The position numbers were made by a program, and so were the translations under genes. A stretch of DNA of 64,000 nt from Spirochaetaceae bacterium (GTDB lineage Bacteria > Spirochaetota > Spirochaetia > DSM-2461), in the NCBI GenBank assembly GCA_051531975.1, contig JAOPTT010000002.1, positions 217,968 to 281,967 on the forward strand. Reading direction: 5' to 3'. Under the pieces are notes generated by a model. It saw only the letters and a program-made list of their open reading frames with translations. It was not told the origin of the DNA and made no database searches. Below, one piece after another: positions 2,631-62,007 of the stretch. Position 1 is the first letter of the stretch. Every line of letters begins with the position of its first letter.

Positions 2631-3725
2631 ATGGATAGATTATTAAAACTCTTAGGCTATACAAATGATATAGAAGTAAATACTAAATTTGCTTATATAA
2701 TTAACAGTGTCAGTATTGGAATGGTTACTCTGTTTTTTGTATTCTATATTATGTTTGCCAATTCTATAATATTAAATATTGCTACAACAGTATGTTTAAT
2801 GATCTTTATATATGTCTATGTTTTATTAAAAAAGAAACGTTTATTAACTGCAAAACTGCTATTAATGATTGGGTTTTTCTTTCAGGAGTTTTCTATTGTC
2901 TTTTTATGGTTCCCAAATGAAACAAATTTCAATTATTTCTTCTTTATAATTGCTCCTATAACATTTTTTATTTATAACATAGATATTAAAATCGAAAAGA
3001 TATTTCTTTTTACATTTAATATATTAGCAATAGTTTTACTTTTTCTAAGTGAACTTGTGGTAAATGTTAATCCTCTTATAATAATTGATGAAAGTATAAT
3101 TACTCTTTTTAGTAGCATGTCAGTTTTATCCACAATTTCATCTATTACTATCGTTTATTTCTTTTATGGACGTACTCTTACAACAATACATAAAGAGTTA
3201 AAATTATTAGCAAATACAGATGCTCTTACAAGTATCTTAAATAGAAGAGCACTGTTTAGAGCAGGTGAAGAACTTTTTGAAGCTTGTAAAAAAAGGGATC
3301 TACAATTTACTCTAATATTAATAGATATAGATTTTTTTAAGGATGTAAATGATTCATATGGTCACCCTGTTGGTGATGAGATACTAGTACAATTAACAGA
3401 ACTAATAACCACACATATAAGACGTAATGATATTTTTTCCAGGTATGGAGGAGAAGAGTTTGCAATAATTCTAAAAAATACAGAAGAATCAGATAATGAG
3501 AAAACAGCAACTATGTTAGGGGAATTTGTTAGAGATCATGATTTTATCGTATCGGATGGAACAGTTATTAAATTAACTATAAGCCTTGGTGTTGTCACCT
3601 CTTCTTCTAAATATTCAGATTTTTCTAGTCTTGTAAAACTAGCTGATAAAGCTCTATACGAAGCTAAAGAGCGTGGACGAAACAGAGCAATAAAATACAG
3701 TGACGAATTGTTAGAAAACTGCTAA
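2631..3725 (+). CDS. Membrane-bound diguanylate cyclase (GGDEF)
   Basis: About 6 TM helices, then DALT..NRR, DIDFFK.VND.YGH..GD, RYGGEEF, ADKALY.AK..GRN. Confidence 0.92.
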   Translation: MDRLLKLLGYTNDIEVNTKFAYIINSVSIGMVTLFFVFYIMFANSIILNIATTVCLMIFIYVYVLLKKKRLLTAKLLLMIGFFFQEFSIVFLWFPNETNFNYFFFIIAPITFFIYNIDIKIEKIFLFTFNILAIVLLFLSELVVNVNPLIIIDESIITLFSSMSVLSTISSITIVYFFYGRTLTTIHKELKLLANTDALTSILNRRALFRAGEELFEACKKRDLQFTLILIDIDFFKDVNDSYGHPVGDEILVQLTELITTHIRRNDIFSRYGGEEFAIILKNTEESDNEKTATMLGEFVRDHDFIVSDGTVIKLTISLGVVTSSSKYSDFSSLVKLADKALYEAKERGRNRAIKYSDELLENC

Positions 3726-6690: not shown

Positions 6691-7923
6691 CTATATTGAA
6701 TGAACTTGATTCAAAAACTCTACAATTGATAATCCAATTTCTTTAGCAAAATTAACAGGAACAGCATTACCAATTTGTTTGTATTGCTGTGAAGCTGAAC
6801 CTTCAAATATCCAGTTATCTGGAAATGTTTGAATCCTAGCATATTCTTTTACTTGAAAAGGTCTTGTAATATCTGGATGGCACCTTTCTGTTTGTTTCTG
6901 AGCTGGAGCACAAGTTAGAGTTAAACATGGTTCATCCCAGCTAATTCTTCTAGCCATACCTGTCTTACCACCGCCTAAATAATAACTTTTAAGCATATAT
7001 TCTTTTTGTATAGATTCTGGTAAATCTCTCCAGTAACCTCCAGGTGGAACCATATCTATAATCTCTTTCTTCCTTGGTGGATATGTCTGTCCAGGAGATT
7101 CTTCAACATCTGTGTCAAAAAGATCTCCCTTTTTAAGGGCATCTTTTAAATTATAGATTTTACTATATGGCTTTGGATAATTAAAATCTACTTTTATATC
7201 TTTTCGAATTGCTACTAATATTAATCTTTCTCTTTTTTGTGGAACTCTATAATGGATAGCTTTTAAAACTCTAGGTTCTAAAACTCTATAACCAAGCTCC
7301 TCTAAAACGTCGATCATACCTTGAAGTGTTTTTCCACCTTCATGGTTTAAAAGACCTCTTACGTTTTCTCCAATACATATTTTAGGTTGGATTTCTTTTA
7401 CAGCTCTTGCAAATTCAAAAAAAAGAGTTCCTCTAGCATCTTTGAATCCAAGTTTTTTGCCTGCAAAACTAAAAGCCTGACAAGGAAAACCACCTGTAAC
7501 AATATCAGCTTTGCCTTTATAATCTGAAAAATCAACTTTTCTAACATCACCTTCTATAACATTCCAATCTGGTCTGTTTTTTCTAAGAGTCTGACATGCC
7601 CACTTATCGACTTCATTAAGAACTGAGTGATGTATTCCAGCTTTTTCTAAACCTAAGGCTAACCCACCACCTCCAGCAAATAATTCCACCGATTTATAAG
7701 TTGATAAAGGTTTTATAGAGCGTTCTACTTTCTCTTCTGGATAATAAAGATTTAAAGTTTCGCAAAGTTCTAGATGTTCTTCGGTATAGTATCTATAATC
7801 ACTAATAGCATGTCTGTTAGCCTTAAGTTTTCCACTATTATCCCAGCGTCTTAAAGTCTCTTTTGATACATCTAGAAATTTTGAAAACTCATCTAAACTA
7901 TATTTCCGACTCTCAACTGACAT
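6691..7923 (-). CDS. C5-cytosine DNA methyltransferase with N-terminal MerR-like HTH (M.Eco47II-like)
   Basis: ELFAGGGG, GGFPCQAFS, ENVRGL, PQKRER, ARIQTFPD, QIGNAVP; N-terminal VSKETLRRWD..GKL...YRYY. Confidence 0.93.
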   Translation of the reverse strand: MSVESRKYSLDEFSKFLDVSKETLRRWDNSGKLKANRHAISDYRYYTEEHLELCETLNLYYPEEKVERSIKPLSTYKSVELFAGGGGLALGLEKAGIHHSVLNEVDKWACQTLRKNRPDWNVIEGDVRKVDFSDYKGKADIVTGGFPCQAFSFAGKKLGFKDARGTLFFEFARAVKEIQPKICIGENVRGLLNHEGGKTLQGMIDVLEELGYRVLEPRVLKAIHYRVPQKRERLILVAIRKDIKVDFNYPKPYSKIYNLKDALKKGDLFDTDVEESPGQTYPPRKKEIIDMVPPGGYWRDLPESIQKEYMLKSYYLGGGKTGMARRISWDEPCLTLTCAPAQKQTERCHPDITRPFQVKEYARIQTFPDNWIFEGSASQQYKQIGNAVPVNFAKEIGLSIVEFLNQVHSI

Positions 7924-28711: not shown

Positions 28712-29596
28712 CTATTTAAATATAACTCTATTTTTCCCTGTCTCTTTGCCATCATATAGACCTATATCGCACCTTTTTATGGCGGCTTCTAATTTGTCTT
28801 TTTCGGTTAATATTGATATACCAAATGTCATAGTAACTTTATGTTTGTGATTATTAAATTCAAATATATAATTTTCAATTGTATGGCGAATTTTCTCTCC
28901 AACATCTAGTGCACCCTCTTTTTTTATTTGTGGAAAATATAAAAGGAACTCCTCTCCTCCCCAACGGCCAAATAGATCTTCAGATCTTATATTTTCCCTT
29001 ATAATTGCGGCTATACTCTGTAATACATAATCACCATAATCATGGCCATATGTATCGTTTATAACTTTAAAATCATCTATGTCACCTAACATAAGATAGC
29101 CCTCTGTTCCACCTCTAGATAACCTATGGTATTCAACCTCTAATTTATCTACAATTCCACGTCTATTATCTATCCTAGTTAGAGGATCAGTTATAGAACA
29201 TCTAAGCAGATCTTTTTTTAGTTTATGAAGTTCAAGGTGAGTCTTAATTCGGATTTTAAGTTCAGCTTGATGAAATGGTTTTTTAATATAATCTATTCCA
29301 CCAACTTCAAACCCCTTAACAACATTTTCAACATCACTGAATGCAGTCAAGAAAATTACAGGTATATTTTTTAATCTCTGATCTCTTTTTATATACTCAC
29401 AAACTTCATATCCATTCATATCTGGCATTGAGATATCTAATAATACCAGATCAGGAATACTATCTTCCATTGCTGCAATAGCCGATTTACCACTGGTAGC
29501 CATAATTAGTTCATAGGGTTCATTCACTAAATGACTAGCGATCACTTGTAAATTTTTGGGGATATCATCTACGATAAGAATTTCTTGATCAGACAC
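28712..29596 (-). CDS. Response regulator REC-GGDEF diguanylate cyclase
   Basis: IVDD, LDISMP, KPF; RWGGEEF. Confidence 0.9.
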   Translation of the reverse strand: MSDQEILIVDDIPKNLQVIASHLVNEPYELIMATSGKSAIAAMEDSIPDLVLLDISMPDMNGYEVCEYIKRDQRLKNIPVIFLTAFSDVENVVKGFEVGGIDYIKKPFHQAELKIRIKTHLELHKLKKDLLRCSITDPLTRIDNRRGIVDKLEVEYHRLSRGGTEGYLMLGDIDDFKVINDTYGHDYGDYVLQSIAAIIRENIRSEDLFGRWGGEEFLLYFPQIKKEGALDVGEKIRHTIENYIFEFNNHKHKVTMTFGISILTEKDKLEAAIKRCDIGLYDGKETGKNRVIFK

Positions 29597-52888: not shown

Positions 52889-54580
52889 TTAGCTGGACAT
52901 TCTATTATAAATTTCTTCCATCTGTTTGTGTAGCTTTAAAAAAGCTTTAAAAACAACCGGTCCAAAAATATCTTCACCAGATCTACCAGTTCTATCATCG
53001 GTGGTTAAGATATTAAGAGTCTTTTCATGACTAAACCCATCTTTATATTGCCTTGGACTTCTAAGGGCATCATACCTATCAGCTAAAGATACAATTAAAC
53101 ACTCTATTGGTATTTCATCTGCCTTTAAAGGCCTACATTTGGAATAAAAGCCTGGTTCAGTAGAGAGTTCCTCCACCATATTTCCATTAGTATTTATTAA
53201 AGCTGGATATCCAGAACCTGACCACTCTTGATGATGTAATAAAGAGATTTTTTTTGCCAATTCTAATCTAGGATCATCTTCGACACCTCTACTTATCATT
53301 TTCTCGATTATCTGTGCACCATAAATTGGATGCATCTGCATTAATTCTCTCTCGGCTGGAGTATATATTCTATCAATTTTAATTATGTCTGGTATGGCAA
53401 CCTTCCCGATATCGTGAATTGCAGCAACTTGTCCTATCCAAACAGATGTCTTTTCATCTAGATTTAACTCTCTAGCAATTAATTCCGAATAATAATTAAC
53501 TCTATAAATATGTTGCCCTGTTATTTCATCACTAAATTCTGCTGCTGCACAGAGCCCATCAATTGCTTCTAAGAACCTTAAGTCATTCTTCTTTGCCATA
53601 TCGATTAAAGTACTTATAATCCTGGTATTATCTAATAAAGCTTCCATTGCTTTTAAATCATAGCTGGTTATTTCAGATTTTTTATTAAAAGTGATAATTG
53701 AAATATTTTCTTTATGATAATTTATAAAGTTAGTAATATCGAAACCCATAAATTCCTTAATTTTATTATCAAAAGGATAAATTGATTCAAACTCTGTTTG
53801 GTTGTTATAATTTGATTTAGAATCCGTTACAATTTTATTTTTTTGTCTAGATATATTAATCGGTGCTGAACTATCAGAACTTATAGCTATAGATTCTGAC
53901 TTCACTAAAACACCATTATCAATACGATATGCATGGCCGTTTAATGAACCACTATAATTTAACTGAGTAATAAACAGTCCTGAGTAATCTTTTTTTAATA
54001 CAAGAGCCGATAGTCTATCATATACATCATTAGTATATATAAGATCATCTAATGAGTTTAAAATATCATTACTGAAATGTTTTTGTACTTCTAGTTTAAG
54101 ATCAAGGTTACGACTCAGGGTAATATCATGCAACCACACAAGTGAATTATTATTTACAACTTTAATACTTGCGCTATACCATTTTTTTAATTTAATTGAG
54201 AAAACTTGGTCTTCATTTTTAAGTTTTTTATCTCTTAAAGTTATTAGATCAGATAGTTTTTTTATTCCATGCTCTTTGAAAAGATGTTCCGTTTTTCCTG
54301 CAGCTGCAACAATATTCCCATTTTCATCCATTACAAAAGCTGGATCATTATTCTCTTGAGGAAGAAGTAATAAAATATCTTTTTTTCTATTTTTAAACAT
54401 AACTGCTGCTTTAGAAAATGATTGAACAAAGATAGGAACTAAAAACGGTGTTAAATTAGAAAAGATATATCCTGTTGTAATCAGATTTATAATTAACCCA
54501 ACAATAAATGAAATTAGATAATTTAAAGGTTTAATCAATTCTAAAAAGATAAGTTTTGCCATAATAATAATTTTTTTCAT
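52889..54580 (-). CDS. HD-GYP c-di-GMP phosphodiesterase
   Basis: TG.H..RV, HDIGK, HHQ.W.GSGYP, AD.YDAL...R.YK; N-terminal TM and PAS/GAF-like region. Confidence 0.88.
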   Translation of the reverse strand: MKKIIIMAKLIFLELIKPLNYLISFIVGLIINLITTGYIFSNLTPFLVPIFVQSFSKAAVMFKNRKKDILLLLPQENNDPAFVMDENGNIVAAAGKTEHLFKEHGIKKLSDLITLRDKKLKNEDQVFSIKLKKWYSASIKVVNNNSLVWLHDITLSRNLDLKLEVQKHFSNDILNSLDDLIYTNDVYDRLSALVLKKDYSGLFITQLNYSGSLNGHAYRIDNGVLVKSESIAISSDSSAPINISRQKNKIVTDSKSNYNNQTEFESIYPFDNKIKEFMGFDITNFINYHKENISIITFNKKSEITSYDLKAMEALLDNTRIISTLIDMAKKNDLRFLEAIDGLCAAAEFSDEITGQHIYRVNYYSELIARELNLDEKTSVWIGQVAAIHDIGKVAIPDIIKIDRIYTPAERELMQMHPIYGAQIIEKMISRGVEDDPRLELAKKISLLHHQEWSGSGYPALINTNGNMVEELSTEPGFYSKCRPLKADEIPIECLIVSLADRYDALRSPRQYKDGFSHEKTLNILTTDDRTGRSGEDIFGPVVFKAFLKLHKQMEEIYNRMSS

Positions 54581-54761
54581 ATAAATAATATTATGTCGAC
54601 TCTGTATATTATGCAACATTATTGAACTTTTTGTATTGTTAATTTCAGTATTTCAATTAAAACTGATATTTTATTTGATCTTACTCTCTTTTTTTGTGTT
54701 TTGGGAAGAAATGACTAATTCTGTTGTTTATAAGATTATACAATTATGATTATTATTATCA

Positions 54762-54790
54762 TTTACAAGCAGTAAAACCTTTGTTATAGT
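54762..54790 (+). promoter_or_regulatory. Sigma70 promoter of the ABC-F leader
   Basis: TTTACA-17-TATAGT with extended -10 TGn. Confidence 0.7.
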
Positions 54791-54814
54791 TAAATTATTA
54801 AGAAAGGATGACCG

Positions 54815-54862
54815 ATGAAAATTACCGTATTAAATGCAAAGAAATTTGAAAGAGACATTTAG
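54815..54862 (+). CDS. Leader peptide MKITVLNAKKFERDI
   Basis: AAAGGA RBS, 15 codons, tandem TAG TAG stops, directly upstream of a terminator. Confidence 0.72.
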   Translation: MKITVLNAKKFERDI

Positions 54863-54885
54863 TAGGTAATTATAATCTTATATAT

Positions 54886-54914
54886 AAACCCGAGGCTAAT
54901 GTCTCGGGTTTTTT
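54886..54914 (+). terminator. Attenuator terminator in the ABC-F leader
   Basis: 11-bp stem aaacccgaggc-taat-gtctcgggttt plus T tract; no long + strand gene upstream for it to terminate. Confidence 0.85.
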
Positions 54915-55012
54915 ATTTATAACTAATTTTTACAAAAAAACAGGAGAGAGAACATGAAAATTAAGCAGATGGAAAACAAAACAAAGAGAACTAAAACAGA
55001 AGGAAGTCAATT

Positions 55013-56575
55013 TTGCTTATACAGGGACAAAAAATATCATATAGATATAAAACAAACAGTGAATATACATTAGAAGATATCTCATTTAGATTAGACAACA
55101 AAAGTAAAGTTGGACTAATTGGAGATAATGGAACAGGAAAATCAACACTACTTAAAATATTAATTGGTCAATTAAAACCAGAGGGTTTATTAACCAATAG
55201 TATGGAGATAGCATATCTATCCCAGGAAGTAGAAACAGAATCAAATAAAGTAATAGACCTACTCTATTTAAAGAAGGAAAAGTTATTAAATCTACGGATT
55301 GCAATCGAAGCGTTCCAAGATGATGACTGCACTATATTTTCTGATTATCAGGAAGCAGGTGGTTGGGATTACGAAGTCCAGATTGATAAATGGTTAACTA
55401 GATTTAACTTTACAAAAAAAGACCTATACAGAGATTTAATAGAGTTAAGTGGTGGTGAGAAAACAAAGATTAATCTAATTTCCCTACTCTTACAAGATCC
55501 TGATATTCTACTGCTAGATGAACCAACAAATCACCTCGATTTAGAATCAACTCTATGGTTAGAATCATTTCTTAAAAGTCATAAAACCCCTTACATTATT
55601 ATTAGTCACGATAGAGAGTTTTTAGATAATATAACGACTACAACGTGGGAAATAGAAGATAACAGGCTAGAAGAGTATTCAGGAAACTACAGCTTTTATA
55701 AAAAGATGAAGGAAGAAAAATACAATCTAGAGATGCATCTCTACCAAGAGCAATGTAAAAAGGTTAACAAGCTAAAAAAGTCTTTAAAAGATAGGAAGGA
55801 CTGGGGCTTAAGTCACCAAGCCCAGACAGGGCCTAATGGTTATGCACCAATTTACGAAGAGTTAAAAAACAAAGCCAAAAATACAATGAGAAATGCAATG
55901 GTTCTAGAAAATAGGATTCACCTACTAATTGAAAAAGAGGAGAAGAAGAAACCAACTATAAAAGAGAGTGCAAGAATTGTATTTGAACAGAACCTTGGAA
56001 AAGCAGGTAAAAATTGCATAACCATGGAAAATCTAGGTAAATCATTTACTAAAAACCTCTTTAGTGACCTTAATTTAGTAGTTAAACATGGGGAAAGAGT
56101 TGCTGTTACTGGATTAAATGGTTCAGGAAAAACTACCCTACTTAAAATGATTATGGGTTTGGATATAAATTATTCTGGACGGATATTTATTCCAAAAAAT
56201 GTTTTAATATCATACTTTAGCCAAGAGTACGAAGATTTAAACCATAAAAATTCTATTTTAGATGAAATAACAGATGGCGAACTTTCAAACCAAGGGAATG
56301 TAAGACGCTCTTTAGCATCTATAGGATTTAAAGCTGATGATGTATTTAGAATTATAGAAGAGTTAAGTCCAGGGGAGAAAAGTAAGGTAGCACTAGTTAA
56401 GGCAATGTTATCTAATACGAACCTCTTAATTCTAGACGAACCTACAAATCATTTAGAAATTAGAACACGGGAAGTTGTAGAAGAAGCTCTATTAAACTAT
56501 AAAGGAACCATAATTTTTGTATCCCATGACAGAAGGTTTACAAAAAAAGTAGCAACTTCAACTTTTAATTTATAG
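55013..56575 (+). CDS. ABC-F ATPase, ribosomal-protection (ARE)-like
   Basis: Two NBDs (GDNGTGKS/LSGGE/DEPTNHLD; GLNGSGKT/LSPGE/DEPTNHLE), no TM helices, long interdomain linker. Confidence 0.9.
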   Translation: MLIQGQKISYRYKTNSEYTLEDISFRLDNKSKVGLIGDNGTGKSTLLKILIGQLKPEGLLTNSMEIAYLSQEVETESNKVIDLLYLKKEKLLNLRIAIEAFQDDDCTIFSDYQEAGGWDYEVQIDKWLTRFNFTKKDLYRDLIELSGGEKTKINLISLLLQDPDILLLDEPTNHLDLESTLWLESFLKSHKTPYIIISHDREFLDNITTTTWEIEDNRLEEYSGNYSFYKKMKEEKYNLEMHLYQEQCKKVNKLKKSLKDRKDWGLSHQAQTGPNGYAPIYEELKNKAKNTMRNAMVLENRIHLLIEKEEKKKPTIKESARIVFEQNLGKAGKNCITMENLGKSFTKNLFSDLNLVVKHGERVAVTGLNGSGKTTLLKMIMGLDINYSGRIFIPKNVLISYFSQEYEDLNHKNSILDEITDGELSNQGNVRRSLASIGFKADDVFRIIEELSPGEKSKVALVKAMLSNTNLLILDEPTNHLEIRTREVVEEALLNYKGTIIFVSHDRRFTKKVATSTFNL

Positions 56576-56587
56576 TAAGGAAAAATT

Positions 56588-56609
56588 AGGACTACCATAA
56601 GGTAGTCCT
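56588..56609. terminator. Hairpin between convergent genes
   Basis: aggactacc-ataa-ggtagtcct. Confidence 0.75.
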
Positions 56610-56616
56610 TTAATAA

Positions 56617-58698
56617 CTATTTTTTTAATATTTTAATCCCATAGGGTTTAATTTCCCACTTTAAACCTCTGTTAAAATCTATTAAACACTCATATTCTGA
56701 TGCTGTTTTAAACTCTTCACTGTTGGAGCTGAAGTTCATAACAAATAGATATTCATTATTGATATCAGTCCTTTTTTGAAAGTTTAATAAACCTGTAAAA
56801 CTGTCTATCTGCTCCAAATTAGAGCTTAAATCACAACTAGTAATTAATTTATTATAGAACTTACCTAAATCCTCTACATCCATTCTACCAGCGATATGCA
56901 TAGCCTCCCCCTTACCATAATGATTAATAGTTACAGATGCTTTGCCGTCTGCAATTCCTCCACTAAACGTTGATAAAGTTTTAGCCGTTTTTAGATTAAC
57001 GATCTCGTAGTAGTCCTTAATAGTGGCACTCTTTTTTGTATTACAATCGATACTTTTTATACTTTCAAACTGATGAAGAACATCGATCTGTTCAATATTT
57101 ATTCCTAAAATTTCTGTTAATGGCCCAGGAGCTCCACCCTCAAAACATAGATCTGTTTCATTTACATAACCAGTCTGGTAAGTGGTTATAAGAGTTCCAC
57201 CATTTTTAACAAATTTTTCTATAGTTTTAACCATCTGTTTATTAACCATATGTAACATTGGAGCTACTAAAACTTTATAACCTTTTAGGGAATCCTCACC
57301 AGAAACGATATCCATCTGAATACCTTTGTCCCATAGCGCATAATAATGCTTTTTTATAGTTTCAAGGTATGCTTTTTGTCGGGTATTTATTGGACCTTGG
57401 CTATTTTCAAATGCCCATCTATTTTCCCAATTAAACAAAAGAGCAACTTCAGATTTATACTCTGATTTTGATAATGGTTTTATATCTTTAAGTATCTGGC
57501 CTAATTTTTTTGACTCTTTAAATGTCCTTGTTTCATTTGATCCACTATGATCAACAACTGTACCGTGGAATTTCTCTGAACTACCTTTACTACTTCTCCA
57601 CTGAAAATATTGTACAGAGTTAGAACCGTGGGCTATGGCTTGTAGACTTGTTAATATATTCATACCTGGCTTTTTAAGTTTGCTTATTTTTTGCCAGTTA
57701 ACATTTGTAGGAGTACTCTCCATAAGTAAAAAGTGCCCATTACCAATTGATCTAAAAAGGTCATGGTTAAATGCAACTTCAGAAGCTCTTCTATAATCAT
57801 CTACAGGTATATCTTCTATAGAATCAGGTATGAATTGAAAACCAGGTAGATGCCAGGCTGGGTAAGAGTCCCAAGATGAGACATCTATTTCATCCCTAAA
57901 CTTCCAATAATCAAGAAGAAAGTCGGTGTTTGGATCATCGGCAACTTGCATCATATTTGTAGTGGTTGGAATATCTGTACTAACTTCTCTTAATGTTTTT
58001 ATCTCGGACTTCATAAAATCTATGGTTTTAAATGTTATAAACCGTTTCCAGTCTAAGTTTTTAGCATGTAGAGTAGAATCACCATGGGGAACAGGAGAGT
58101 GAATAAAATTCCAATCAGTTATTTTATGAGACCAAAAAATTGACCACCAGGCCCGGTTTAAATTATCTAAAGTTTTATATCTATCTTTTAACCAATCTCT
58201 AAAACCTTCTTGGCAAAGTTCACAGTGACAATCTCCACCATACTCATTGGAGAGATGCCATAATATTACAGCTGGATGTTTTGCATATCTAGCTGCTAAT
58301 TTACTATTTATTAAATGTAGTTTTTCTCTATATATAGGAGAACTATAACAGTGATTATGTCTTTCTCCATAAATATTTCTTTGTCCATTTTCAGATGTTC
58401 TTAATACCTCAGGATATTTATGTGCTAACCAGCTAGGTCTTGCCCCAGATGGAGTTGATAAAAAAACCTTAATACCAGCGGAATGCAGATTATCTAAAAT
58501 ATCATCTAACCATTCAAATGTAAAAACACCTTCTGTAGCTTCTATTGTACTCCAAGAGAACATTCCTAGGGCTACAACTGTTATATTAGCTTGCTTCATT
58601 AGTTCTATATCAGACTTTAATATATCAGGCCTATCTAACCACTGGTCAGGATTATAGTCTGCTCCATATAACATATCGTCGGTTATTTTCCATTTCAT
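56617..58698 (-). CDS. GH42 beta-galactosidase
   Basis: GADYNPDQW, WH.SNEY, C.C..C, LMES, YFQWR..EKFHG. Confidence 0.94.
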   Translation of the reverse strand: MKWKITDDMLYGADYNPDQWLDRPDILKSDIELMKQANITVVALGMFSWSTIEATEGVFTFEWLDDILDNLHSAGIKVFLSTPSGARPSWLAHKYPEVLRTSENGQRNIYGERHNHCYSSPIYREKLHLINSKLAARYAKHPAVILWHLSNEYGGDCHCELCQEGFRDWLKDRYKTLDNLNRAWWSIFWSHKITDWNFIHSPVPHGDSTLHAKNLDWKRFITFKTIDFMKSEIKTLREVSTDIPTTTNMMQVADDPNTDFLLDYWKFRDEIDVSSWDSYPAWHLPGFQFIPDSIEDIPVDDYRRASEVAFNHDLFRSIGNGHFLLMESTPTNVNWQKISKLKKPGMNILTSLQAIAHGSNSVQYFQWRSSKGSSEKFHGTVVDHSGSNETRTFKESKKLGQILKDIKPLSKSEYKSEVALLFNWENRWAFENSQGPINTRQKAYLETIKKHYYALWDKGIQMDIVSGEDSLKGYKVLVAPMLHMVNKQMVKTIEKFVKNGGTLITTYQTGYVNETDLCFEGGAPGPLTEILGINIEQIDVLHQFESIKSIDCNTKKSATIKDYYEIVNLKTAKTLSTFSGGIADGKASVTINHYGKGEAMHIAGRMDVEDLGKFYNKLITSCDLSSNLEQIDSFTGLLNFQKRTDINNEYLFVMNFSSNSEEFKTASEYECLIDFNRGLKWEIKPYGIKILKK

Positions 58699-60657: not shown

Positions 60658-62007
60658 ATGATAGAAGAATCAATAGAGTTTAAAAACAGACTAATAAAAA
60701 TAGCAATACCAATTATGTTAAGTAAATTTTTATCATCATCTATATCTTTAGTTGATAATATTATGATCGGAAGCCTTGGGGAGATTCCTATTGCCGGAGT
60801 CTCTCTAGCTAACGAGTTTACCTTTATATTCATGATTTTAGTAAGCAGTACCAGTTCTGGGGCATCTATATTTATTGCCCAGTACTGGGGTAAAAAAGAT
60901 CTAAAAAGTATTCATAGTTTTATGGGGATATGTTACCGGATATCCTTAACTATTTCTCTTATATTTTTTATAGGTTCAAGCTTCTTCCCCATGGAACTAC
61001 TCTCTTTTTACTCCAAGGATATAGATGTACTAAATACAGGTGCTAATTATCTGAAAATAATATCTTTAACATTCCCACTTAGTGCAATCTCTATAACAAT
61101 ATCTAGTACCCTCCGGAGTACAGAAAGGGTAAAAACCCCTTTAATAGTTTCTACTGGGGCAATAATTTTAAACTCCATACTTAACCTACTTCTAATTCAT
61201 GGTATAGGTATCTTCCCAGAACTTGGTGTAACTGGTGCAGCTATTGCGACACTGATTTCTAAAGCTCTGGAAACCTTAACAATAGTAATTATAGCTTATT
61301 ATAAGAAAACCCAGGCTGCTACTCCTTTAAAGGACCTATTACATATACCAAAAACATTCTGGAATAAATATTTAAAAACCTCATTCCCTGTAATTATAAA
61401 TAATTTTGGTTGGGCTGCAGGTATGACAATCTGTATATCTGTTTATAGCAGAATGGGAATAGAGAGCATTACATCTTATAAAATATCAGCAGTTATTATG
61501 GATCTGTTTTTTGTCATCATCACCGCCTCGGCAAATGCATCTGCAATAGTATTAGGAAATATTATAGGGACTGGTGATTTTCAAAAAGCGCAACGTTATG
61601 GAAAAAGGTTTCTAAAGTTATCTATAATCATGGCTATAATTCTTGGAATAATAGTTGCCAGCCTATCTTCTACAATTCCAAACATGTTTAACGTTAGCCA
61701 ATCAATAAAAGATAATAGTAGGATTATTTTATTAATTTTTTCAGTCTTTCTAATTTTTAAAGGCATCAATAATCACCTCATTACAGGCTTTTTTAGTTCT
61801 GGTGGAGATACATTTGTATCAATGTTATTAAACACCCTTGGTATTTGGTTCTGGGCAGTACCAATTAGTATCTTTTCTGGATTGTATTTATCACTACCAA
61901 TCTACTATGTATTTGCCTTAGTTTGCCTAGAAGAGATAATAAAAGCCTTATTTGCAGTTCCACGTTTTAGATCAGGTAAGTGGATAAAAGAAATAATTTC
62001 AAACTAG
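60658..62007 (+). CDS. MATE family efflux transporter
   Basis: AIP, DNIMIG.LG, AQYWG, LG..GAAIAT; about 12 TM helices. Confidence 0.92.
   Translation: MIEESIEFKNRLIKIAIPIMLSKFLSSSISLVDNIMIGSLGEIPIAGVSLANEFTFIFMILVSSTSSGASIFIAQYWGKKDLKSIHSFMGICYRISLTISLIFFIGSSFFPMELLSFYSKDIDVLNTGANYLKIISLTFPLSAISITISSTLRSTERVKTPLIVSTGAIILNSILNLLLIHGIGIFPELGVTGAAIATLISKALETLTIVIIAYYKKTQAATPLKDLLHIPKTFWNKYLKTSFPVIINNFGWAAGMTICISVYSRMGIESITSYKISAVIMDLFFVIITASANASAIVLGNIIGTGDFQKAQRYGKRFLKLSIIMAIILGIIVASLSSTIPNMFNVSQSIKDNSRIILLIFSVFLIFKGINNHLITGFFSSGGDTFVSMLLNTLGIWFWAVPISIFSGLYLSLPIYYVFALVCLEEIIKALFAVPRFRSGKWIKEIISN

Follow-up and report, generated by a model that had tools for sequence, protein, structure and literature searches.

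How is a gene expressed when a strong intrinsic terminator stands in its own 5' leader? The question is raised by an ABC-F gene in a 64-kb stretch of spirochaete DNA (64,000 nucleotides of contig JAOPTT010000002.1, referred to below as the window). A promoter-like site, a Shine-Dalgarno (SD) sequence, a 15-codon upstream open reading frame (uORF1), a strong terminator and the ABC-F gene follow one another in the order that a preliminary description of this DNA had given, and reading of the sequence confirms each position. The reading that we favour, with a somewhat better than even chance of being right, is that the leader acts as a ribosome-sensing transcription attenuator that controls an antibiotic-resistance-type (ARE-like) ABC-F gene in a Thiospirochaeta-like spirochaete; this reading leans on RNA folding models. 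The leader is probably a further member of a known group, the attenuators in which a uORF and a terminator control ARE-type ABC-F genes, with a weaker switch. Gram-positive bacteria employ this layout to turn such genes on when ribosomes are stalled by antibiotics. The switch would work kinetically, drugs would induce it and the protein would presumably confer resistance.

The promoter-like site has 10 of 12 matches and carries the extended -10 TG (TG 54782-83, -10 hexamer 54785-90), and the transcript would start near 54797. The region 54400-56800 shows no general enrichment of promoter-like sites (10 observed vs 13.1 +/- 3.9 in shuffles). uORF1 lies close to the 5' end of the leader, is preceded by an SD of its own and may encode a leader peptide. 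It ends in tandem stop codons (TAGTAG, 54860-54865), both of which lie inside the 3' arm of a leader hairpin. The terminator that follows has a folding energy of -17.5 to -18 kcal/mol. It shares first place in strength among the terminator-like sites in positions 1-60000 of the window and is the sole strong one inside a 5' leader, as the other strong terminator-like sites in this range sit at gene 3' ends. The distance from the terminator to the ABC-F start is 101 nt. A scan that recognises sigma-70-type sites only found no promoter-like site between the terminator and the gene (54912-55012), so the gene depends on read-through.

What could make the terminator conditional? The preliminary description had proposed that the end of the leader ORF is complementary to the loop and 3' arm of the terminator, and this is borne out over exactly 8 nt: the reverse complement of GAGACATT (54852-59) is identical to AATGTCTC (54898-54905). 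In dinucleotide shuffles, a perfect leader:terminator complement of at least 8 nt arises in 53 of 2000 cases. The resulting antiterminator helix can be extended by GGU 54865-67 with ACC 54888-90 and by AGAAAUUU (54840-47) with GGGUUUUU (54906-13). The leader also folds on itself. The segment 54797-54885 folds at -15.2 kcal/mol with a z-score of -3.41, which is equalled by 1 of 200 shuffles, and the 3' arm of the resulting hairpin overlaps part of the antiterminator strand and covers both uORF1 stop codons. In the folding models this hairpin (54820-54871) is a candidate anti-antiterminator. The attenuator had been called complete before, a description that overlooked both this hairpin and a second small ORF, uORF2, downstream of the terminator.

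Termination is decided while the RNA grows, and for this reason the leader was folded as a growing chain, at each length with exposure from 54898 to 54913. With no ribosome on the leader there are no antiterminator:terminator pairs at any length, and the terminator grows from 54903 on. When a ribosome is placed on codon 1, 3, 5 or 7, the chain folds best into the alternative helix, with 5 pairs from exposure of 54899-54900 and 11 pairs from 54905 to 54906-07. With the ribosome on codons 1-7, the terminator displaces the alternative helix only once G54907-08 are exposed. Dinucleotide shuffles of 54837-54885 (n = 1000, ribosome on codon 3) excluded the terminator in 69 cases at 54905, 24 at 54906 and 4 at 54907. 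By this model, the ribosome-dependent pairing is rarer than chance at the relevant transcript stage.

The proposed mechanism of the attenuator is as follows. Transcription from the promoter-like site would give a leader transcript of about 120 nt. With no ribosome, or with a ribosome at codons 8-15 or the stop, the strand 54852-63 would be held in the leader hairpin or covered. The strand would then be unavailable, the terminator would form and the transcript would end in the U-tract. Inhibitors of initiation or early elongation at the peptidyl-transferase centre would hold a ribosome on uORF1 codons 1-7, where it covers the hairpin's 5' arm. Once released, the strand 54852-63 could zip onto the emerging terminator loop and 3' arm (11 pairs). 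Closure of the terminator would be delayed while the polymerase crosses the U-tract, and some polymerases would read through. The read-through RNA would carry uORF2 and the ABC-F gene, the latter starting at TTG, and the ABC-F protein would most likely bind stalled ribosomes and relieve the block.

Table 1. Positions of the leader elements, the ABC-F gene and its downstream hairpin, numbered from the first nucleotide of the window
Feature	Position	Strand	Details
Promoter-like site	54762-54790	+	-35 TTTACA 54762-67; 17-nt spacer; extended -10 TGtTATAGT
SD of leader ORF	54803-54808	+	AAAGGA, 6 nt before ATG 54815
uORF1 (putative leader peptide)	54815-54865	+	15 codons, MKITVLNAKKFERDI; ATG 54815; stop TAG 54860-62; second in-frame TAG 54863-65
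Leader hairpin (candidate anti-antiterminator)	54820-54871	+	5' arm 54820-36 (uORF1 codons 2-8); 3' arm 54856-71
Antiterminator 5' strand (predicted)	54852-54863	+	GAGACA-U-UUAGU; pairs with 54895-54905 (GAGACA:UGUCUC, UUAGU:GCUAA)
Intrinsic terminator	54886-54921	+	Stem-loop 54886-54911, 11 pairs, 6 G-C, loop TAAT; U-tract TTTTTTATTT
uORF2	54942-55073	+	39 codons; SD AGGAG 54942-46; ATG 54954; stop TAG 55071-73
SD of ABC-F gene	55000-55006	+	AAGGAAG, 6 nt before TTG 55013
ABC-F gene	55013-56575	+	520 aa, TTG start; two ABC domains, arm insertion, long interdomain linker, no C-terminal extension
Hairpin (probable two-way terminator)	56588-56609		9 pairs, T-rich on both sides; between convergent ABC-F and GH42 genes

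Several results weigh against this attenuator, and the most direct of them is the behaviour of the leader at equilibrium. In this test 30 nt were masked for a ribosome at each of uORF1 codons 1-16. In the full leader the terminator stays in the minimum-energy structure with the ribosome at any of these codons, and the probability of the terminator pair is 0.9991-0.9999 with the ribosome on codons 1, 3 or 5. A vmlR-type locus from Peribacillus (L056) served as the positive control, and there the same masking lowers the probability from 0.9999 to 0.08-0.25. The same scripts recovered an SD (AGAAGGG), a uORF encoding Met-Ile-Asn (MIN) and a terminator in L056, elements that match those described for B. 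subtilis vmlR (Takada 2022, PMC9226507). Because L056 flips under masking, the method detects a true equilibrium switch, and the leader in the window is not one. The energies agree with this result. The antiterminator reaches -7.5 kcal/mol for the pairing first proposed and -11 to -14 kcal/mol when extended, compared with -18 kcal/mol for the terminator; the extended version that includes the GGU:ACC and AGAAAUUU:GGGUUUUU pairs has -11 to -11.8 kcal/mol. No upstream partner was found for the 5' arm of the terminator, the best duplex having -2.9 kcal/mol, or -4.3 kcal/mol in another window of the search. As this arm is unpaired upstream, its CCC:GGG pairs can nucleate the terminator and displace the antiterminator, and since the antiterminator targets the loop and 3' arm and not the 5' arm, it has a head start of only a few nucleotides. 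The leader:terminator duplex energy is also ordinary, being matched by 389 of 2000 and 421 of 2000 shuffles. This energy was rejected as a statistic, as it does not separate known from unknown leaders and is uninformative. In addition, uORF1 has 15 codons compared with the 3-4 codons of known pleuromutilin/lincosamide/streptogramin A-type ARE genes, and no Rfam 15 family reached its gathering score anywhere in the window. A scan of 54400-55200 up to E = 10 gave 14 Rfam matches, all of them far below threshold and driven by the terminator; the one with the lowest E-value was Leu_leader (22.9 of 50 bits).

Since the terminator wins at equilibrium and the antiterminator only in the growing chain, the switch is plausible only as a kinetic one. 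Taken together, the two models describe the antiterminator as a transient, ribosome-dependent competitor that is much weaker than the one in L056. The earlier proposal was that an early stalled ribosome frees the antiterminator strand and a late one masks it. It stands for the growing chain, where the antiterminator forms only with a ribosome on codons 1-7, and it does not stand at equilibrium, where the terminator probability remains at 0.999. Two further loci were put through the masking run. At an msr(D) locus a competing hairpin already removes the tested terminator pair without a ribosome, so that the run is uninformative. A Listeria leader of the rliI type (L082) did not flip with a ribosome at the start of its 36-codon uORF and is a control neither way.

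Could the terminator simply be fixed? It may be that uORF1 and the terminator form a separate short unit, such as a small RNA (sRNA) or a small protein, or that the terminator is a fixed, leaky one; in either case the complementarity would have arisen by chance. The ABC-F protein would then be made from constitutive read-through or from a promoter that the scan did not recognise, and the limitation of the scan to sigma-70-type sites leaves room for such a promoter, although no promoter-like site was seen in 54912-55012. The victory of the terminator at equilibrium in every state, the ordinary duplex energy and the only moderate rarity of the 8-mer all fit a fixed terminator. Such a terminator does not account for a leader hairpin and a ribosome-dependent pairing that are both rarer than in shuffles and that fit together logically, and the layout is the same as that of ARE genes elsewhere. 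An sRNA or a small protein would also have to be reconciled with the lack of any Rfam sRNA family at threshold and with a hydrophilic peptide of 15 residues that has no obvious role. We regard a separate unit or a fixed leaky terminator as distinctly unlikely.

The weakness of the RNA-only antiterminator at equilibrium could also mean that a helper is needed. In that case the terminator would be governed by another factor, namely an RNA-binding antiterminator protein, a small ligand or temperature. The leader before the terminator is only about 90 nt long, however, and a suitably positioned ORF preceded by an SD takes up most of it. This leader matches none of the riboswitch or leader families of Rfam, and no candidate regulator gene is adjacent, the neighbours being genes for an HD-domain protein and a glycoside hydrolase family 42 (GH42) galactosidase. 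Control by such a factor is considered very improbable.

The second small ORF, uORF2, adds a further possibility. Its SD, 7 nt before the ATG, is the strongest in the region. The ORF lies in a different frame from the ABC-F gene, crosses the SD and TTG of that gene and ends 58 nt inside it. uORF2 and uORF1 begin with the same 10 nt, ATGAAAATTA, and thus with Met-Lys-Ile. On both strands of the window ATGAAAATTA has two copies only, at 54815 and 54954 (1.34 expected), and none of the 52 long ORFs in the window starts with ATGAAAAT. These features have led to the suggestion that the main control is translational. Ribosome traffic on uORF2 across the weak TTG would block initiation of ABC-F, a stall at the uORF2 start would clear it, and the upstream terminator would merely set a low transcript level. 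Two-level control has a precedent in vmlR and cplR (PMC9226507; 10.1101/2022.12.05.519065). However, the terminator, the hairpin and the pairing would be left without an explanation. The uORF2 peptide matched only itself among 1.84 billion representatives, a result of little weight, since ORFs of this size are seldom called. There is also no significant structure around the ABC-F start: the segment 54912-55090 has a z-score of +0.34, equalled by 120 of 200 shuffles, and contains no fold that hides the SD. Any effect of uORF2 would consequently be exerted through ribosome traffic and not through a hairpin. As the main mode of control this is improbable, but it can coexist with the attenuator.

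uORF1 and uORF2 may even be duplicated copies of one arrest module, which together would make a two-stage sensor. This is a speculative reading and an unlikely one. If it were true, a drug-held ribosome on uORF1 would let an antiterminator form briefly on the terminator's 3' arm and the polymerase would pass, and a second held ribosome on uORF2 would stop the traffic across the weak TTG start. One arrest module would then gate both transcription and translation, which would be a new mode of coupling. An arrangement with two copies of an arrest module is not described in those parts of the ARE ABC-F literature that were examined (PMC9226507, 10.1101/2022.12.05.519065, PMC10314930).

What kind of protein does the leader control? 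The ABC-F gene encodes a single polypeptide with two ABC ATPase domains and without a membrane domain, as is expected of the ARE type. Pfam places ABC_tran in two stretches (162.4 bits) and a piece of ABC_tran_Xtn in the linker. The N-termini of 19 homologues align with the TTG at 55013. A start at ATG 54954 with a frameshift is ruled out by these 19 homologue starts and by NCBIfam family NF000355, which aligns from residue 3. A run of six A residues (55029-55034) lies in the overlap of uORF2 and ABC-F, the ABC-F frame being -1 relative to uORF2; nothing suggests frameshifting there, because the homologues start at the TTG position. In the linker, residues 203-304 (102 residues) align with residues 218-294 (77 residues) of M. 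tuberculosis EttA and are thus about 25 residues longer. Over the region that begins where the first ABC domain ends and includes the second, the protein has 377 residues compared with 374 in VmlR, and 373 compared with 379 in an ExpZ chain (8buu). Judged from these alignments, the interdomain linker (ARD) exceeds the PtIM of EttA and has a length like that in VmlR.

The family assignment is less clear. Comparison with ABC-F subfamily hidden Markov models, which the preliminary description had put forward as a check, gives a divided answer. The protein passes NF000355 ("ribosomal protection-like ABC-F") with 446.9 bits against a cut-off of 380, residues 3-518 lying on positions 3-497 of the 499 in the profile. 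NF000355 is the best family for all 20 members of the subfamily to which the protein belongs (best E-value 3e-143). The 78 other ABC-F proteins that were scanned all exceed this cut-off as well (386.6-518.6 bits), among them YheS-type proteins of the locus set L001-L080 that score 811-825 bits on their own model. Because every ABC-F protein scanned passes NF000355, the family name alone is no evidence of a resistance function. The cut-offs of the named ARE families were not reached: Vga (313.9/725), Sal (300.5/725), CplR (294.7/780), Lsa (280.9/750), Msr (275/680), OptrA (249.6/1450) and the producer type (237.9/800). The best matches in the PDB are two ExpZ chains, 8buu (259.6 bits) and 6ha8, which is VmlR (250.8 bits), and EttA comes close to the VmlR scores with 241.9 bits.

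A quick IQ-TREE tree of 56 rows was built from all 20 subfamily members, 26 of the 78 locus proteins and ten references, namely E. coli EttA, Uup, YbiT and YheS, Vga(C), Msr(G), Msr(D), Lsa(B), an ABC-F from a staphylococcal plasmid and one from Listeria; the tree does not contain L081 or 52 of the locus proteins. The 20 rows of the subfamily form a clade of their own (SH-aLRT 98). A branch with SH-aLRT 96 separates this subfamily, Vga(C), Msr(D), Msr(G), Lsa(B) and L056 from E. coli EttA, Uup, YbiT and YheS and 27 others. The two "ribosomal protection-like" references, from the staphylococcal plasmid and from Listeria, fall on the housekeeping side of this branch. The tree is unrooted and has long branches (3.1 for Lsa(B)), and the subfamily stands in a fork with Vga/Msr/L056 and Lsa(B) that has no clear order. 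By this quick tree the protein appears to stand apart from the housekeeping ABC-F proteins and yet to be a member of no named ARE family. The term ARE-like, which the preliminary description had used, is supported by the side of the tree on which the protein falls, away from the four E. coli housekeeping proteins, and not by any named family. We consider it a putative ARE-type ribosome-protection protein that may confer resistance.

The undiscriminating NF000355 cut-off, the score of EttA and the uncertain order of the tree count, like the results for the RNA, on the other side of the balance. The same is true of the base composition: GC content is 31% and is equal in the ABC-F gene and its flanks, so there is no sign of recent transfer. 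These points are what would be expected if the leader senses translation stress and the protein is a general ribosome-rescue or translation factor, with an attenuator tuned to any stalling. The separate clade without a clear sister among the named AREs, the named families that were all missed and the lack of mobile genes nearby fit this alternative as well, and B. subtilis vmlR itself is also induced by ribosome-assembly defects (Takada 2022, PMC9226507). A general factor is harder to reconcile with a linker of VmlR length, some 25 residues above EttA, with the position of four named ARE references on the near side of the SH-aLRT 96 branch and of the four E. coli housekeeping proteins on the far side, and with a patchy distribution. 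Housekeeping ABC-F proteins are not known to occur behind leader terminators. A general factor of this kind is possible but doubtful.

The patchiness is seen among the relatives. The closest homologues have 57-66% identity over the alignment and none above 66% was found in the search. The next group has 40-46% and includes a protein from a Cloacimonas metagenome-assembled genome (the first named hit, 44%). The closest relatives are scattered and the distribution looks patchy, as would be expected of an accessory gene.

ARE ABC-F genes are commonly controlled by uORF-dependent attenuation (Obana, bioRxiv 10.1101/2022.12.05.519065, which cites Dar 2016, Vimberg 2020, Koberska 2021 and Ohki 2005), and the leader in the window can be compared with several such systems. 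In B. subtilis vmlR (PMC9226507), as is predicted for the window, a promoter-proximal uORF with its own SD lies in a 5' anti-antiterminator hairpin, and when a ribosome is held at the uORF start or close to it, a strand is released that can compete with a terminator upstream of an ARE ABC-F gene. The two differ in that vmlR has a 3-codon uORF (MIN), a 219-nt leader, a separate pause hairpin and an SD-sequestering hairpin. The window has a 15-codon uORF, a leader of about 120 nt, no SD-sequestering structure and a predicted antiterminator on the loop and 3' arm that would win only transiently, and its protein has the arm insertion and lacks a C-terminal extension. In the vmlR-type control L056, unlike in the window, the antiterminator pairs with the terminator's 5' arm and wins at equilibrium.

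The repressed state of C. difficile cplR and of Listeria lmo0919/vgaL (rli53) also consists of a uORF hairpin followed by a terminator (10.1101/2022.12.05.519065, PMC11550727), and both are induced by ribosome stalling on the uORF, as is proposed for the window (10.1101/2022.12.05.519065). The uORFs known from the pleuromutilin/lincosamide/streptogramin A type are 3-4 codons long and encode MIN, MRI, MK[L/Q] or MAGN (10.1101/2022.12.05.519065). The window shares with some of them a start of the form Met-basic-hydrophobic, which is MRI in cplR, MK[L/Q] in vmlR2 and MKI here (10.1101/2022.12.05.519065). The terminator of cplR hides the SD of the gene and ends at the start codon; that of the window lies 101 nt upstream, and the gap holds uORF2. 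No match to rli53 was obtained in the Rfam scan of 54400-55200 up to E = 10. The leader architecture had been called new in the preliminary description. This is a matter of degree, as the logic of anti-antiterminator, antiterminator and terminator is that of vmlR and cplR.

A leader peptide, an intrinsic terminator and an ARE ABC-F gene with control at the level of transcription are also found in msrDL-msrD (Fostier 2023, PMC10314930). There a ribosome stalled at the stop codon is a physical obstacle to a weak terminator, which begins only 4 nt beyond that codon (PMC10314930); the terminator of the msr(D) locus L089 has -7.8 kcal/mol in our calculation compared with -7.9 kcal/mol in that paper. 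In the window the stop lies 23 nt before a terminator of -17.5 kcal/mol, and a ribosome stalled late would favour termination. With this geometry a ribosome at the uORF1 stop cannot block the terminator directly.

ARE-type ABC-F genes have been recorded in Spirochaetes before, and the novelty of finding one in a spirochaete is weakened accordingly. The tva(A) gene of Brachyspira is an ABC-F pleuromutilin-resistance gene, and tva(A)/tva(B) resemble the gene in the window as ARE-type ABC-F genes of Spirochaetes, a likeness drawn from their description and not from sequence, and differ from it in their host, that of the window being a free-living relative of Thiospirochaeta; attenuation or a leader is not mentioned for the tva genes in the part of the paper at hand (Card 2018, PMC6018095). 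ARE1 and ARE3 members are listed for Spirochaetes by Murina (2019, PMC6723617). No description of uORF-linked regulation of ARE ABC-F genes in spirochaetes was found in the one library of literature searched.

Why would such an attenuator matter? What has been learned of inducible ARE ABC-F genes comes almost entirely from Firmicutes and Actinobacteria. If the attenuator works in a free-living marine-type spirochaete, the sensing of stalled ribosomes would be used beyond these two groups. It would also mean that an unnamed ABC-F subfamily, which in this analysis was seen in uncultured genomes and metagenomes alone, probably responds to antibiotics, and that a compact leader of 120 nt can act through kinetic competition alone. 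The leader could then serve as a small, easily tested reporter for ribosome-stalling compounds.

The host had been taken for a spirochaete, and the seryl-tRNA synthetase (SerS) encoded in the window agrees with this, having 90% identity to SerS of Thiospirochaeta perfilievii and about 70% to that of other Spirochaetaceae. The host is a free-living spirochaete related to Thiospirochaeta. The leader occupies the gap between divergent genes (54620-55012), with the gene for the HD-domain protein on the minus strand (52889-54619) and the ABC-F gene on the plus strand. The ABC-F gene is monocistronic and lies between the HD-domain gene and a convergent gene for a GH42 beta-galactosidase. The hairpin between these two convergent genes is a probable two-way terminator for both. 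No mobile genes were seen near the ABC-F gene in the annotation of its neighbourhood.

Leaders at related loci were surveyed in a scan of genome contigs with the generic pattern DEPTNHLD/E, which gave at least 601 stretches. The 80 loci kept have 28-41% identity and encode mostly longer ABC-F proteins, so that the relatives' DNA obtained in this way does not exceed 41% identity. Under a strict no-bulge rule, a leader terminator was found within 350 nt upstream in 11 of the 80 loci, compared with 3 of 80 on the opposite strand; 4 of the 80 had less than 100 nt of upstream sequence, and at least one of the 11 appears, by eye, to follow a tRNA-like sequence. This base-rate comparison was dropped, as the loci are not separable into ARE and non-ARE when NF000355 does not discriminate. 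In Listeria monocytogenes NZ_LR134400.1 (L082:343-647), the Rfam sRNA rliI (282.6 bits) is located immediately before an ABC-F gene. This rliI holds a 36-codon ORF with an SD and a terminator of -15.4 kcal/mol 70 nt before the gene, and it looks like the leader of the downstream ABC-F gene.

Other genes of the window may be mentioned briefly. A MATE-family efflux transporter is encoded 4 kb downstream of the ABC-F gene (60658-62007; TIGR00797, 197 bits), beyond the GH42 galactosidase gene and an arabinofuranosidase gene. Signalling genes of the cyclic-di-GMP type are present at 2631-3725, 28712-29596 and 52889-54619 and encode two GGDEF proteins and one HD-domain protein. The last of these, the divergent neighbour of the leader, has a weak match to a cyclic-di-GMP phosphodiesterase response regulator. 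A DNA cytosine-5 methyltransferase gene is located at 6691-7923 (TIGR00675, 266 bits).

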